Shown here piece after piece: positions 1,209 through 38,790 of a stretch of DNA of 44,545 bases (position 1 is its first letter; every line of letters starts with the position of its first letter). The DNA is from a virus. Taxonomy: Duplodnaviria > Heunggongvirae > Uroviricota > Caudoviricetes. Location: the IMG/VR virus record IMGVR_UViG_2737471829_000005. The stretch is one strand, 5' to 3'. The translations under genes and the position numbers were made by a program. The notes under the pieces are model-generated. The model had not been told where the DNA came from. It worked only from the letters and a program-made list of their open reading frames with translations, and searched no databases.

Positions 1209-1233
1209 ATAAAAAAGGCCCCCGAAGGGGCCT
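1209..1233 (-). terminator. Intrinsic terminator; functional on the minus strand, hairpin also present on plus
   Basis: aggcccc-cgaa-ggggcct, 7-bp GC stem, preceded by A6 on plus, giving a U-run on minus. Confidence 0.55.
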
Positions 1234-1238
1234 AATCG

Positions 1239-1361
1239 CTACTTGCTGCTAATGTTTATCGTCACATTCAGAGCGTTATCAGTAATCTTCCAACCCTCCC
1301 CATGTGGCGTAAACAAAGCTCCAGTAACAACGATAAAAATACACATGTAGTATTTTTTCAT
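1239..1361 (-). CDS. Small hydrophobic peptide of about 40 aa (MKKYYMCIFIVVTGALFT...); possible membrane peptide or type I toxin candidate
   Basis: Internal ATG at 1361 with AAGGG RBS 7 nt upstream; hydrophobic N-terminus; terminator directly downstream. Confidence 0.25.
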   Translation of the reverse strand: MKKYYMCIFIVVTGALFTPHGEGWKITDNALNVTINISSK

Positions 1362-1425
1362 TGTGTGGCCCTTACAGGCCGTTTCACGGCATCCCCACCG
1401 ACGAAAATGACGCGAGAGCAAGCAC

Positions 1426-1445
1426 GCTGTTTGTGCCTGCGTGGT
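1426..1445 (+). repeat. Direct repeat copy 1 (gctgtttgtgcctgcgtggt)
   Basis: 19/20 identical to 1676-1695, 250 bp apart, in an ORF-poor region. Confidence 0.5.
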
Positions 1446-1633
1446 ACGGCAAGTGGATAATCCTTTCCTGAAAGTCAGTGCCCGGGTGCGAATCGGCGGA
1501 AAGGCCCCAAGCCATATTACACGTCATACCCTTCATAATGAAGGAATAAAAAACGCTTTTATTACATAAGATTACACGTAAATAAGTTAAAAACCTTCAT
1601 TTTGCATGAGCTAATGAGCTAAATTTTTTTATA

Positions 1634-1651
1634 TGAATAGTGGACTATTCA
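1634..1651. promoter_or_regulatory. Perfect 8-bp inverted repeat tgaatagt-gg-actattca; operator-like
   Basis: Palindrome lying between the two direct repeats. Confidence 0.35.
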
Positions 1652-1675
1652 CCTCAGTTGGGTAAGAATGTAGTT

Positions 1676-1695
1676 GCTGTTTGTGCTTGCGTGGT
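1676..1695 (+). repeat. Direct repeat copy 2 (gctgtttgtgcttgcgtggt)
   Basis: 19/20 identical to 1426-1445. Confidence 0.5.
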
Positions 1696-1751
1696 TGTAT
1701 TAGTACAACGACGTTATGCTGAAAGGACCGCGAATCCGATCAGCACGAAAG

Positions 1752-1779
1752 AACCGTCCTCAAAAGGACGGTTTTTTTG
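1752..1779. terminator. Intrinsic terminator; strong on plus, overlaps the stop of the minus-strand HTH gene
   Basis: aaccgtcc-tcaaaa-ggacggtt followed by T7. Confidence 0.6.
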
Positions 1780-2332
1780 TTTCTCCCCCTTCCTTCCCAA
1801 ATGATTCAAATGTTAATGAGAGTGAATCATTTGATATGTTCGATTTAGCGCCGTTATCGACCCAATTTCTGTATGCTTCATCACAACAGTACCTTACAGC
1901 AGTTGGAGTAACAGGGATGCCGCCCCCAAATGAGAATCCCATTGAGCTAATGCTAACTCTTTCGAATGGCCTATTTCTCAATGCTTCAAACCCCTTGCTA
2001 TTAAAGTAACGCAGCATCAGAGGTAAAAGGTTATCCTCGTCCTGACTGATTGTTCCAGGGAAAAAGTAGTAACCATAACGGTTAAATTCGGGAATAAGAT
2101 TTTCTACCAATGACATGAAATTCACTGGAGTAATATTAAGGGCTGTGAAAGCACCAAAAAGGGCGTCAACTGTTAATACAGACTGCCCGTTCTCTATCTT
2201 TGTCCATGCGTTTGGTGTTTTTCCAGCAGCTTGAGCCAGCACTCCTTGATGCACACCTCTTTCTAGCCTAAGTTCTTTTATGATCATTAGGTGAATTGTT
2301 GAAAAACATGAGTTTTTTGACTGTTCAATCAT
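1760..2332 (-). CDS. HTH (XRE-like) transcriptional regulator with C-terminal domain, divergent from the antirepressor operon; candidate immunity repressor
   Basis: 190-aa ORF; N-terminal helix-turn-helix-like segment LAQAAGKTPNAWTKIENGQS. Confidence 0.55.
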   Translation of the reverse strand: MIEQSKNSCFSTIHLMIIKELRLERGVHQGVLAQAAGKTPNAWTKIENGQSVLTVDALFGAFTALNITPVNFMSLVENLIPEFNRYGYYFFPGTISQDEDNLLPLMLRYFNSKGFEALRNRPFERVSISSMGFSFGGGIPVTPTAVRYCCDEAYRNWVDNGAKSNISNDSLSLTFESFGKEGGETKKPSF

Positions 2333-2514
2333 TTTTTATCCCCATACTGAATTTTTTCTTGTTCCCGAATTTAACAAAATTCCACAACTCAGGACTGATT
2401 GATTCCTTACAGGAACTATACATTCCCATTTTTAGCATATCAAGAAAATTAAAAGCCCCGCATTCAAACCCACACTATGTGGTTGTCTCTGTTAAAATCC
2501 CGCCGTATTGACAT

Positions 2515-2616
2515 AAATGCGCCATTGGTGGACACTTTCCGAGCCGTAGCAAAATCTACGGCCGGGATTAGCCTCCTGAATAACACGATGGCGCATACCG
2601 CGTTAGCGGTTTTTTT
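2515..2616 (+). ncRNA. Candidate small regulatory RNA upstream of the small ORF and antirepressor (P1 c4-like position)
   Basis: TTGACA at 2508-2513; internal hairpin gccgtag...ctacggc; terminator-like hairpin plus T-run at 2597-2616; the -10 is poor. Confidence 0.25.
2597..2616 (+). terminator. Short intrinsic-terminator-like hairpin with T-run
   Basis: accgc-gtta-gcggt followed by T6. Confidence 0.4.
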
Positions 2617-2778
2617 ATGCGTAGAGCACTGTTACGCCCAAATTATGGTGGGTCGTACAGGGGCGGAGAAATCCGCGCCGGTTCGTCATTGTGTCCGGTA
2701 AGGCTAACCCTGTACGGCTCACCACCATTTGATTAGCCTCGAATGGCGGTGATAGTTCCATATACTGGAGATATCACA

Positions 2779-2970
2779 ATGACAAACCTACCCCATGACT
2801 ATTACGTCAACCTCGTAAAGATCCTTCTCAAGAAAGCCTCATACGCCGATAAATTCCGCCTGGCTGAAATCATCGAGCGCGAAGCTATGCGCATCGCCAG
2901 CAACGATAACGCTGTTTCTGACGCAAAAATCTCCCTCGTAACCAAAGTAGTTATGGGAGGTGCAAAATGA
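2779..2970 (+). CDS. Small protein (63 aa) overlapping the antirepressor start; Icd-like position
   Basis: ATG at 2779 with GGAG 8 nt upstream; stop overlaps the antirepressor ATG (ATGA). Confidence 0.45.
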   Translation: MTNLPHDYYVNLVKILLKKASYADKFRLAEIIEREAMRIASNDNAVSDAKISLVTKVVMGGAK

Positions 2971-4112
2971 AAACGCTTCCGACCGTTAACACCCTACAGC
3001 CTATCCTGCATAACCAAATCCCTGTCATTACTACCGAGTTACTAGCACAGCTTTACGGCACTGAGCCGGTGCGTATTCGCCAGAATCATCATGAGAACAA
3101 AGCACGTTTCGTTGAAGGGAAACACTTTTTCAAAGTTGTTGGTAATGACCTTAAAGAATTGCGGGTAGCTTTAAACTACTCTCAAAATCCAGTTTCACCT
3201 AAAGTCCGCTCCCTCATCCTCTGGACAGAACGCGGGGCTGCACGTCACGCTAAAATGCTCGAAACCGATCAGGCGTGGGATGTATTCGAACGGCTGGAAG
3301 ACTGCTACTTCAACCAGAACGCGCAAACGGCCGCGACCGTAACCGTCTCACCAAACAATGCTCGTGAGGTTGTCGATACGCTCAACGCTAAACCAATGTA
3401 TTACATTAAGGTGTGCAACAACGAGCCACTCACAACCTCAGCCGATGTTGCCCAGGCATTCAGCACCACAAACAATTCCATCGTTATGGCCATCGATGCG
3501 TTACGCATTCCTCGCACAGCTGCGGCGCGTCACTTCTTTAAAGAGCAACGACCGCTGGAAGGAAGCGACCGCGAAATAACAATCTATCGCATGACAAAAG
3601 ACGGATTTACCTTGCTCATGGAGAGCATCGACGGTCCAAGCGTGAAAGATATCAAGCTGGCCTACATTGAAGCCTTTAACGCTATCAGCAGCGTGTTAAA
3701 AACACAGTACGAGCGTGATCTGGCTAAACGACTATACCAGGAAAAAACGATTATCCGCGCGGCAACAGAGCATAATCGGCTATTAACGGAACCGAACTAC
3801 AGGAAGGAACTAATCAAGGAGTTTGACAAGGCAACAGGGAAAACCAAAGCGGCGCTAAGTCTGCCAGCAATGACTCAGGAAAATGTGATATCAGCCTTAC
3901 TTCTTGATCTGCTCAGAAACGCCAGAGCACTTATCAGCTTTGACGAAAACCTGAATCCTCAGCTCAAGCTACTACCACCGACAGGCAAAGTAGTCGACCA
4001 AGCAGATCACAACAGCATACTCAGCGTACTGGATGCAAACCTGCCAGCCAGGACACTACAGGATCTGATAAAAACATGTGCTGATAAGCTGGCACAGAAA
4101 AGCAGACCATAA
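2967..4112 (+). CDS. Phage antirepressor (Ant-like; ORF6N/AntA-type N-terminal domain)
   Basis: 381-aa ORF; N-terminal region typical of antirepressor/Rha-type proteins; terminator directly downstream. Confidence 0.65.
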   Translation: MKTLPTVNTLQPILHNQIPVITTELLAQLYGTEPVRIRQNHHENKARFVEGKHFFKVVGNDLKELRVALNYSQNPVSPKVRSLILWTERGAARHAKMLETDQAWDVFERLEDCYFNQNAQTAATVTVSPNNAREVVDTLNAKPMYYIKVCNNEPLTTSADVAQAFSTTNNSIVMAIDALRIPRTAAARHFFKEQRPLEGSDREITIYRMTKDGFTLLMESIDGPSVKDIKLAYIEAFNAISSVLKTQYERDLAKRLYQEKTIIRAATEHNRLLTEPNYRKELIKEFDKATGKTKAALSLPAMTQENVISALLLDLLRNARALISFDENLNPQLKLLPPTGKVVDQADHNSILSVLDANLPARTLQDLIKTCADKLAQKSRP

Positions 4113-26252: not shown

Positions 26253-26636
26253 TTATGCAGATGGATTTTGTTGTGCGGTATTAAGGAATATTCCAACCTT
26301 CCGGCAAGCCAGATATACATCGGCAACTTTTGCTGATTCAGGAAGTATAACCGCATGTGCATTGAACATTCCGGTCAGCCATGCTGTTCCGACTTGCGCT
26401 GAATCAGTCGCATCAATATTGTGTTGAGCGATACAATACGGTTCTTTTGCCTCCCCTTCACCAGAGAGATTTATTGGCGCCACAGTGACAACATTTGTTG
26501 TCTGATCAATACTGACAAAAGCAAGTAACTCACCCCGTTTTACTTTACCGCTGGCAAGTTTAATACTTGTTGGAATTGCTGGCATACCACCAGAAATAAT
26601 CAGATTATCTGGTTCAAATGAAAAAGACTCTCGCAT
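26253..26636 (-). CDS. Head decoration protein (gpD-like)
   Basis: 127 aa between protease and capsid genes. Confidence 0.6.
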   Translation of the reverse strand: MRESFSFEPDNLIISGGMPAIPTSIKLASGKVKRGELLAFVSIDQTTNVVTVAPINLSGEGEAKEPYCIAQHNIDATDSAQVGTAWLTGMFNAHAVILPESAKVADVYLACRKVGIFLNTAQQNPSA

Positions 26637-26645
26637 AAACTCACC

Positions 26646-27734
26646 TTAATTTTTATCGCGGTTTTTAAATACTGACCCAATAACATTTTTTACTGCTTCA
26701 GCCTGTTTGTTACCGTTGTTTTCTGGTTGATTAACATCAACTGAATCATTCACCTCACTTGCGTCTTCTTGCCGTTGATTAAGAAAGTTTTTGTTACGCG
26801 CTCGCTCTGCATTCATAATTTCCAAAGCAAGTTCAGCCGCAGAAACTCCTGTTTTGAATTTTGCATTCTTAACCAGGTCGTCATGACCAGGAATCACGCT
26901 ATTCTCGATTGTTTCAATGCGCTCGCGTTCTGATTTAACGCCCTCGTCTTTACCAGCATTAAAAACCTGATTGTATAATTCTGGATATTTATTTTTTAAT
27001 TCATCAAGAGTCACAATATCGTCCTCATTTTGTTCATTTGATTCAGTAGATAACTCATTTTTATTTTGCGGCAACTTTGCGAGTGAATCAGGTAATTTTG
27101 AAAACCTTGATGCTTCAAAAGTTATTCCATTAAGAGAAAGCATCCCTTCTTTTATAGAAGCGGATAAGCGTATTGGTTTTTCAACTTCGTCAGCAAATCC
27201 AAGCTCTACAGCCTCTTCTGCATTTAGCCATGTTTCCTGATCCATTAGTTCAATTAATTTATCCTCAGAAAGCCCTGTTTTCTCCTTATATGCAGATAAA
27301 ATACTATTGCGTATCTTATCCATCATCTCAGCAATATCACGCAATTCATCCGCATCGCCAGCAGCAAATGTCCACGGATTATGGATCATCATCATAGCAT
27401 TAGATGGGATAATAATTTTATCACCCGCCATTGCAATAATAGTTGCAGCCGATGCAGCAATCCCGTCGATATAAACCGTAATATTCGCCTTATGACGCTT
27501 TAATGATGAAAGAATAGCTTGAGCAGTAAAAACAGAACCACCATAACTATTAATTTTTACGTTGATAGTATTTGATGAAATATCATTTAATTTATTAACT
27601 ATGTCAGAAGAAGAAACCTCATCAAATTCACCAATATACCCGTAAATTAAAAGTTCAGCCGGAGAGTCATCTTCACCCGTGCTATTTTTTATTTCCCACC
27701 AATTAGGCATCATCAGTCTCCATATTTTGTTCAT
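26646..27734 (-). CDS. Head maturation protease / scaffold (S49/ClpP-like, lambda gpC-like)
   Basis: 362 aa; ClpP/SppA-like core GGSVFTAQAI...IDGIAASAATIIAMAGD. Confidence 0.8.
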   Translation of the reverse strand: MNKIWRLMMPNWWEIKNSTGEDDSPAELLIYGYIGEFDEVSSSDIVNKLNDISSNTINVKINSYGGSVFTAQAILSSLKRHKANITVYIDGIAASAATIIAMAGDKIIIPSNAMMMIHNPWTFAAGDADELRDIAEMMDKIRNSILSAYKEKTGLSEDKLIELMDQETWLNAEEAVELGFADEVEKPIRLSASIKEGMLSLNGITFEASRFSKLPDSLAKLPQNKNELSTESNEQNEDDIVTLDELKNKYPELYNQVFNAGKDEGVKSERERIETIENSVIPGHDDLVKNAKFKTGVSAAELALEIMNAERARNKNFLNQRQEDASEVNDSVDVNQPENNGNKQAEAVKNVIGSVFKNRDKN

Positions 27735-38714: not shown

Positions 38715-38790
38715 TGGTGGCCCCTACCGGATTTGAACCGATGACCGTGCGATTATGAGTCGCCTGCTCTAACCACTAAGCTAAGGGGCC
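38715..38790 (-). tRNA. tRNA with CAU anticodon (Ile2-like or Met elongator; not distinguishable by eye)
   Basis: Reverse complement is GGCCCCTTAGCTTAGTGGTTAGAGCAGGCGACTCATAATCGCACGGTCATCGGTTCAAATCCGGTAGGGGCCACCA: 7-bp acceptor stem, D-arm, CTCATAA anticodon loop, GGTTCAAATCC T-arm, encoded CCA. Confidence 0.85.

Follow-up and report, generated by a model that had tools for sequence, protein, structure and literature searches.

What does a stretch of phage DNA encode that holds two nearly identical 20-mers, a perfect palindrome, a terminator and a gene for a small hydrophobic peptide? The question arises at positions 1239–1780 of IMG/VR virus record IMGVR_UViG_2737471829_000005, a Caudoviricetes stretch of 44,545 nt that is referred to as the window and whose numbering is used for all coordinates. 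An earlier note on this DNA had proposed one or two small RNAs (sRNAs) or an operator array for a neighboring helix-turn-helix (HTH) regulator, and had offered a type I toxin with an antisense RNA as a more speculative reading. The evidence favors exactly that last reading: the region is very probably a type I toxin-antitoxin module of the timPR (ryfA/TimR) family, carried here by a phage-plasmid. The landmarks that the note described were all found again. The two 20-mers, 250 bp apart (GCTGTTTGTGCCTGCGTGGT at 1426–1445 and GCTGTTTGTGCTTGCGTGGT at 1676–1695), are identical at 19 of 20 positions, and the palindrome at 1634–1651 is perfect (TGAATAGT-GG-ACTATTCA). The plus-strand terminator placed near 1752–1779 is a hairpin at 1751–1779 with a 16-bp stem, and the 40-amino-acid peptide gene, a minus-strand open reading frame (ORF) at 1361..1239, has its own terminator at 1233..1216. 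A simple terminator scan did not return the 1751–1779 hairpin because an upstream A-tract pairs with the T-tract and lengthens the stem. A third copy of the 20-mer is absent from the 44.5-kb window at up to three mismatches (mean 0.01 in 100 shuffles), and shuffles of the two local segments yielded at most 15 of 20 identities. The analytic expectation for such a pair is 2e-6 for the region and 0.055 for the whole window. The 8-bp palindrome by itself is statistically unremarkable, and the 1634–1651 motif does not recur within the window.

The minus-strand transcript was identified by homology. An Rfam scan of the window assigned 1509..1211 (minus) to ryfA (RF00126) over model positions 1–296 of 296, scoring 134.6 bits (gathering score 80; E = 2e-34). 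The same family was matched in seven related plasmids and two IMG/VR contigs at 132–145 bits. The ryfA gene has been renamed timP, as its transcript is the mRNA for a 38-residue toxic inner-membrane protein with a Sec-type signal sequence (PMC7667032). By blastn, window 1309–1507 is ~70% identical to a timP-annotated stretch of ~2,000 E. coli chromosomes. The peptide encoded by the ORF aligns with E. coli TimP at 33% identity (BLASTP, E = 1e-6); its residues 4–17 have a Kyte-Doolittle mean of +2.09, and its N-terminus appears hydrophobic and signal-sequence-like. A protein homology search with the 40-residue peptide returned nothing beyond its own cluster. For comparison among relatives, the window was aligned with seven plasmids at 82–98% identity. 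The ORF is 97–100% identical across the eight relatives, with start and stop codons intact. The putative -10 element of the timP promoter is separated from the GGCC start by the same spacing as in the E. coli arrangement TATTAT-N7-GGCC, and TAAnAT is conserved in 8/8 relatives while the adjoining spacer is ~60% identical.

Since the toxin mRNA is a minus-strand transcript and the second 20-mer closely precedes a terminator on the plus strand, the direct repeat in the DNA corresponds to complementarity between two RNAs. The plus-strand RNA GCUGUUUGUGCUUGCGUGGU and the minus-strand RNA ACCACGCAGGCACAAACAGC form a contiguous 20-bp helix of -40.2 kcal/mol, in which the one C/T mismatch between the 20-mers becomes a G-U wobble. 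This pairing supports an antitoxin that is a divergently encoded, trans-acting sRNA, the 5' 20 nt of which would pair with the 5' untranslated region (UTR) of the toxin mRNA. TimR, the sRNA that represses timP, is likewise divergently encoded, and an uninterrupted 18 nt of its 5' region are complementary to the timP 5'UTR at a site over 60 nt upstream of the ribosome-binding site; in all enterobacterial homologues examined, the opposite strand has such a complementary sequence upstream, with an intrinsic terminator behind it (PMC7667032). With +1 at 1507, the target in the window occupies +63 to +82 and lies 64 nt before the AUG, compared with 63 nt in E. coli. E. coli TimR and E. coli timP form a 20-bp helix at the equivalent UTR position (-38.7 kcal/mol), and cross pairs between the plasmid and chromosomal systems reach only 7–10 bp (-19 to -21 kcal/mol). 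Outside stem-loop 2 (SL2), the plasmid UTR contains an 11-bp match to one of the chromosomal TimR copies. By predicted pairing, the plasmid seed is orthogonal to E. coli chromosomal TimR. These comparisons were made by seed-versus-UTR duplex analysis; duplexes of the full-length RNAs computed with RNAduplex were uninformative, with shuffled sequences reaching similar energies.

The two 20-mers also change together. Three seed classes occur among the relatives, and both copies are altered jointly at two positions (T/T to C/C). The window class has GCTGTTTG in both the timP 5'UTR copy and the sRNA copy, the JE86_p3 class has (A)CCGCTTG in the 5'UTR copy and GCCGCTTG in the sRNA copy, and the AR0067 class has GCTGCTTG in both. 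A helix of 18–21 bp is maintained in every relative. The remainder of the sRNA is homologous to TimR as well, its conserved body (1717–1745) and terminator aligning with both E. coli TimR copies. The sRNA region is 91–100% identical among relatives and folds with an energy of -46.7 kcal/mol (z = -7.3 relative to shuffled sequences). Within the variable spacer upstream, the sole invariant islands are TGGAC.ATT (1641–1649) and GTAA.AAT (1662–1669); these are the likely -35 and -10 elements of the sRNA promoter, with a start predicted at 1675–1677, the first base of the repeat. A sub-threshold match to Rfam RNAI at 1682–1779 (28 bits, gathering score 47) was dismissed as a structural likeness of terminator and stem-loop. 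On the chromosomal side, E. coli NZ_CP029574 (reverse complement, 1400–1905) carries two tandem TimR-like genes and a remnant of the timP 5' end; the distal TimR copy alone has the 20-bp timP match, the proximal copy having 11 bp, and Rfam IS128 (RF00125) spans the stretch between the two genes.

The architecture of the timP 5'UTR is conserved. Interaction sites 1–4 were mapped from published mutational coordinates (G33/C34, C57-G59, G102/C103 and G125; PMC11228461, PMC13000454), which fit the E. coli sequence exactly, and were compared in six sequences, of which the plasmids are closely related. The pseudoknot that joins SL1 to SL3 reads CGCUGGC:GCCAGUG in E. coli, CACCGAC:GUCGGUG in the relatives and CACUGAC:GUCGGUG in the window. 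All seven of its pairs form in all six sequences, two of them through compensatory double changes relative to E. coli, and an unguided duplex search also recovered the pseudoknot in the relatives and in E. coli. For the four-stem-loop UTR, 91.7% of cells are paired compared with 38–47% with slid partners, in the six sequences from which the structure was derived. The SL2 hairpin (1440..1418) is 100% paired across relatives and corresponds to the TimR-binding stem-loop of timP, and SL4 has the same position as the timP SL4 that traps the Shine-Dalgarno sequence (PMC11228461). The features of the module are listed in Table 1.

Table 1 Features of the timPR-like module in the window.
Feature	Coordinates	Strand	Basis or remark
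timP-like toxin mRNA (Rfam ryfA, RF00126)	1211..1509	minus	predicted start ~1507
TimP-like ORF, 40 aa	1239..1361 (including stop)	minus	MKKYYMCIFIVVTGALFTPHGEGWKITDNALNVTINISSK
Peptide architecture: MKK, hydrophobic segment, polar tail	1239..1361	minus	ORF translation
Intrinsic terminator of timP mRNA	1211..1233 (also placed at 1233..1216)	minus	terminator scan; identical in 8/8 relatives
Putative -10 element of timP promoter, TAATAT	1514..1519	minus	predicted; 7 nt upstream of GGCC start
Pseudoknot site 1, CACUGAC, upper stem-loop 1	1474..1480	minus	pairs with site 3; = G33/C34 of PMC11228461, PMC13000454
Site 2, GCCGU	1446..1450	minus	immediately 5' of sRNA target; = C57-G59 of PMC13000454
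sRNA target (first 20-mer) in 5'UTR	1426..1445	minus	5-nt flank, 5' arm and loop of stem-loop 2
Pseudoknot site 3, GUCGGUG, loop of stem-loop 3	1396..1402	minus	pairs with site 1
Site 4, ACGGC	1382..1378	minus	pairs with site 2
Stem-loop 4, GGCCU-GUAA-GGGCC	1380..1367	minus	traps Shine-Dalgarno AAGGG (1373..1369)
Variable AT-rich spacer between divergent promoters	1510..1640		low identity among relatives
Palindrome, 8-bp arms	1634..1651		right half holds putative sRNA -35
Putative sRNA promoter: -35 TGGACT (1641-1646), -10 TAAGAAT (1663-1669)	1641..1669	plus	predicted from conservation
TimR-like antitoxin sRNA, ~104 nt	1676..1779	plus	homology, fold, conservation
sRNA parts: seed (second 20-mer); conserved body; terminator	1676-1695; 1717-1745; 1751-1779	plus	

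A working scheme for the module can be proposed by analogy. The minus strand would yield an mRNA of ~300 nt (~1507 to 1211) with a long structured 5'UTR (SL1–SL4) in which SL4 would hide the Shine-Dalgarno sequence, and this mRNA would encode the 40-residue TimP-like peptide, presumably toxic. The divergent promoter, with its putative -35 element in the right half of the palindrome, would produce a TimR-like sRNA of ~104 nt (~1676–1779). The first 20 nt of this sRNA would bind at SL2 to its flank, 5' arm and loop, a site 64 nt ahead of the start codon. In the published system, translation of timP depends on formation of both the pseudoknot and the site 2–4 interaction, and the sRNA at SL2 breaks the pseudoknot and prevents translation (PMC11228461, PMC13000454). 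If the locus behaves as Salmonella timPR does, translation would require the SL1–SL3 pseudoknot and a site 2–4 interaction that frees the Shine-Dalgarno sequence; the sRNA at SL2 would disrupt the pseudoknot, and the mRNA would stay untranslatable. Of the one or two sRNAs proposed in the earlier note, one is retained as the TimR-like sRNA, and the other transcript is a ~300-nt mRNA formerly annotated as the sRNA RyfA. The type I toxin idea is the reading with evidence behind it, with the amendment that the antitoxin does not overlap its target as a true antisense RNA would. Both the family and its mechanism are already known; what is new is the phage-plasmid location, the divergence and the orthogonal seed.

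The locus is widespread on one kind of element. The same 600 bp were found in 60 PLSDB plasmids (59 from Escherichia) that are 46–51 kb in size and non-mobilizable, among them the 48.5-kb plasmid of E. coli ATCC 25922 (99.3% match). They were also found in 71 E. coli RefSeq records, three Yersinia pestis myophages (vB_YpM_39, 41 and 44) and two IMG/VR contigs. The position of the locus is constant in the 60 plasmids, three phages and 71 E. coli records. Stretches 1000–2500 and 1200–1800 match plasmids of E. coli and E. albertii, as well as phages isolated on Y. pestis EV76, at 99–100% identity, which identifies the element as a phage-plasmid (~48 kb) with a broad enterobacterial host range. 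None of the ten typed phage-plasmid groups (PMC12977533) matches it in both size and morphology. Both RNAs are 90–100% conserved, and the 1510–1640 spacer between them has a mean identity of ~60%. A strict SL1 pattern matched two IMG/VR contigs, both the same element, and two E. coli chromosomes in the genome collection; a short degenerate sRNA pattern run against IMG/VR gave mostly chance matches among the matches listed. The locus is unannotated in all records inspected, namely RefSeq plasmids of E. coli, E. albertii and E. fergusonii and the GenBank record of Yersinia phage vB_YpM_41. In the ATCC 25922 plasmid record the HTH regulator is the only feature under the match, and the peptide is listed merely as a "hypothetical" or "uncharacterized" protein, in one E. 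coli entry. A search of the available literature found no paper connecting timPR with phage-plasmids.

Several observations weigh against the timPR assignment or against parts of it. The RNA match is far under the 314.9 bits of the chromosomal copies, and the NCBIfam model toxic_TimP (NF040796) gives the peptide 22.2 bits, the curated cutoff being 45, in an alignment that runs end to end (E = 1.2e-4). This sub-cutoff score probably explains the omission of the ORF by the Prokaryotic Genome Annotation Pipeline (PGAP). A consensus promoter scan called neither the timP promoter nor the sRNA promoter, and the two assignments therefore rest on conservation. The covariation amounts to three sequence classes from closely related plasmids, and the tested UTR structure was derived from the same sequences, so that the slid-partner control is biased in its favor. 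Of the 7 bp of the site 2–4 interaction, the central 5 are present in all sequences, and the two flanking pairs of E. coli are lost. The site 1–2 pairing of the inactive state is weaker and shifted in register, at -6.5 kcal/mol versus -12.9 kcal/mol in E. coli; in the E. coli register it is broken by an A-C mismatch, and the best alternative has 4 bp. As to function, a Salmonella timR deletion with endogenous TimP expression still grows (PMC7667032), and a killing or addiction role is therefore uncertain.

Some of these weaknesses lend themselves to two other accounts of the same RNAs. The ~300-nt transcript might be mainly a non-coding regulatory RNA resembling RyfA, with an ORF that makes no functional toxin and a short RNA that acts as its sponge or regulator. 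The family was long annotated as an sRNA and was treated as such in studies of uropathogenic and avian pathogenic E. coli, two papers ascribe stress and virulence phenotypes to RyfA (PMC8205139, PMC13188913), and the peptide does score under the NCBIfam cutoff. However, the locus retains the ORF, its Shine-Dalgarno sequence, the hairpin that sequesters it and the pseudoknot that enables translation; near-identity of the ORF in the relatives, start and stop included, also argues for a coding function, and translation and toxicity of TimP have been demonstrated for the family (PMC7667032). A mainly regulatory transcript is, on balance, very unlikely. Still less probable is an inert relic, a chromosomal timPR that the plasmid acquired and that is no longer expressed. 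The low Rfam score relative to the chromosomal locus and the weakening of the site 1–2 pairs and the outer site 2–4 pairs are what such decay might leave. Nonetheless, the same position is kept in the 60 plasmids, three phages and 71 E. coli records, strong conservation of the two RNAs contrasts with a fast-evolving spacer beside them, seed and target have changed in coordination, and the promoter islands are invariant.

The remaining account takes the 20-mers, with or without the palindrome, as operator sites for the HTH protein encoded at 1760–2332 or for another repressor, the small ORF being incidental. The repeats do flank the AT-rich promoter region, the palindrome overlaps the likely -35 element, and an HTH_3/HTH_31 protein is encoded next to the region. 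However, the HTH gene, which had been described as divergent, lies on the minus strand with its 3' end abutting the region; it converges on the sRNA gene and has its own promoter-like site on the far side (2443..2415). Of 7 relatives with both repeats, 6 lack this gene, and in those isrK follows ~80 nt past the sRNA terminator. The repeats themselves are direct, non-palindromic and 250 bp apart, each within a conserved transcribed RNA and one of them inside the structured, transcribed 5'UTR. The 20-mer is found nowhere else in the window, and the C/T difference between its copies yields a G-U pair; the copies co-vary as pairing partners. An operator array for the HTH regulator is the least probable of these alternatives, and the type I timPR module is retained. 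Separately, the left arm of the 1634–1651 palindrome appears dispensable, as 2 of 8 relatives have lost it, TGGAC.ATT in the right half being invariant; the palindrome may still serve as an operator on the sRNA promoter.

Other repeats were noted in the spacer and around the HTH gene. A second palindrome, CCTTCAT-A-ATGAAGG, is located at 1530–1544, near the expected -35 of the timP promoter, and a further half-site copy lies 64 bp away at 1594–1608. The CCTTCAT/ATGAAGG motif occurs six times in the window compared with a shuffle mean of 1.4, above every shuffle, and the palindrome is restricted to relatives with the window-type spacer. The idea of a shared phage operator family was dropped, neither palindrome recurring elsewhere in the window. 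The HTH_3/HTH_31 gene is inserted where the sRNA terminator is followed by immI, and this insert varies. The final codons of the gene overlap the sRNA terminator, which is bidirectional, and in E. albertii pEA32_4 a different HTH gene takes its place. A 19-nt inverted repeat (2081–2099 and 2357–2375, 95% complementary) has one arm in the HTH ORF and the other in the 5' leader, downstream of the promoter-like site (TTGATA-17-TATAGT, minus). Both arms would be on one mRNA, so that long-range intramolecular pairing is possible; the repeat may represent such a pairing or a pair of operator half-sites.

The module is located directly downstream of a ParA-type partition operon (28–988) and upstream of a P1-type immI region. 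Stabilization (addiction) of the phage-plasmid would be its most likely role, because it adjoins the partition genes and because its seed is predicted to be orthogonal to chromosomal TimR. A more far-reaching possibility, which we regard as tentative and on present evidence rather unlikely, is that timPR has been domesticated by the phage-plasmid as an addiction or life-cycle device. In that event the orthogonal seed would leave host TimR unable to neutralize the plasmid toxin, and TimP would be released when the element is lost or when the sRNA promoter is shut off by way of the palindrome over its -35. The outcome could be post-segregational growth arrest or a permeabilized membrane, in the latter case coupled to induction of the prophage or to superinfection (abortive infection or exclusion). 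The weaker site 1–2 pairing might also make the plasmid copy more readily translated than the chromosomal one. Domestication, if true, would give a TimP-family toxin its first defined biological role, which would also be the first for timPR on a phage-plasmid. In other respects the locus is an ordinary instance of a characterized family with no new mechanism. For the question of what timPR does physiologically, a mobile, partition-adjacent copy whose seed is orthogonal offers a directly testable setting, in plasmid stability and in behavior on induction or infection. The three seed classes and the altered site 1–2 and 2–4 pairings are natural variants for the published structural-switch model, and the peptide missed by the curated TimP protein model marks an annotation gap.

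Several neighboring features were recorded in addition. A 60-residue ORF (1018–1200) without Pfam or NCBIfam match lies between the partition genes and the timP terminator, and a 49-residue ORF that overlaps it is annotated as hypothetical in some relatives. The immI region (2543–4112) contains an isrK-like RNA (2543–2616, 68 bits), a C4 antisense RNA (2641–2729, 70.8 bits), a sub-threshold c4-a1b1 target match (2530–2582), a small ORF (2743–2970) and an ORF6N/Phage_pRha Ant-like protein (2967–4112). A tRNA gene is present at 38718–38790 (minus) and is tRNA-Met in the annotation of the phage record. Further annotations in that record (OR545054.1) are a HigB2-like type II toxin and a small gene next to it (26556–27202), indicating that the element carries a second toxin-antitoxin module, and a Hin-type invertase beside the tail-fibre region.

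Among known systems, the closest is the chromosomal timP/TimR pair of Salmonella, E. coli and other Enterobacterales (RF00126, NF040796). The two loci share full-length mRNA homology, the position and size of the ORF, and a divergent sRNA with a homologous body and terminator and a 5' seed of 18–20 nt against SL2, 63–64 nt upstream of the AUG. They also share SL1–SL4, the SL1–SL3 pseudoknot and the sequestered Shine-Dalgarno sequence. The chromosomal pair sits between sseA and sseB, whereas the present copy is on a phage-plasmid beside partition genes. The present peptide is 33% identical and below the NCBIfam cutoff, the Rfam scores are 135 versus 315 bits, the seed is orthogonal, SL4 is shorter (5 bp, GUAA loop) and site 1–2 is weaker. 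The E. coli chromosome examined has two sRNA copies and the plasmid locus one. More distant parallels are three E. coli type I systems, tisB/istR-1, zorO/orzO and shoB/ohsC, whose antitoxin sRNAs are trans-acting and divergently encoded. In these systems, too, toxin and sRNA diverge from a shared intergenic region, and ~18–20 nt of complementarity link the sRNA to the toxin 5'UTR, well upstream of the ribosome-binding site, visible as a DNA repeat. However, the tisB, zorO and shoB toxins have neither sequence homology to this locus nor a signal-sequence-like N-terminus, and their mRNAs require 5' processing for translation. Instead of 5' processing, timP uses a structural switch and pseudoknot (PMC11228461). 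Plasmid R1's hok/sok system is likewise a plasmid-borne small membrane toxin under sRNA control in a maintenance region, and it is the functional precedent for the proposed stabilizing role, killing on plasmid loss, in which the antitoxin RNA is outlived by the toxin mRNA, applying here only by analogy. It differs in that Sok is a true overlapping antisense RNA acting through the mok leader ORF, that hok mRNA needs 3' processing and that there is no homology. The phage-plasmid P1 shares with the present element a P1-type immI region (C4 RNA and Ant-like gene). P1 also carries a toxin-antitoxin module on a plasmid prophage, phd/doc, although this is a type II system with a protein antitoxin and is unrelated in sequence and mechanism.

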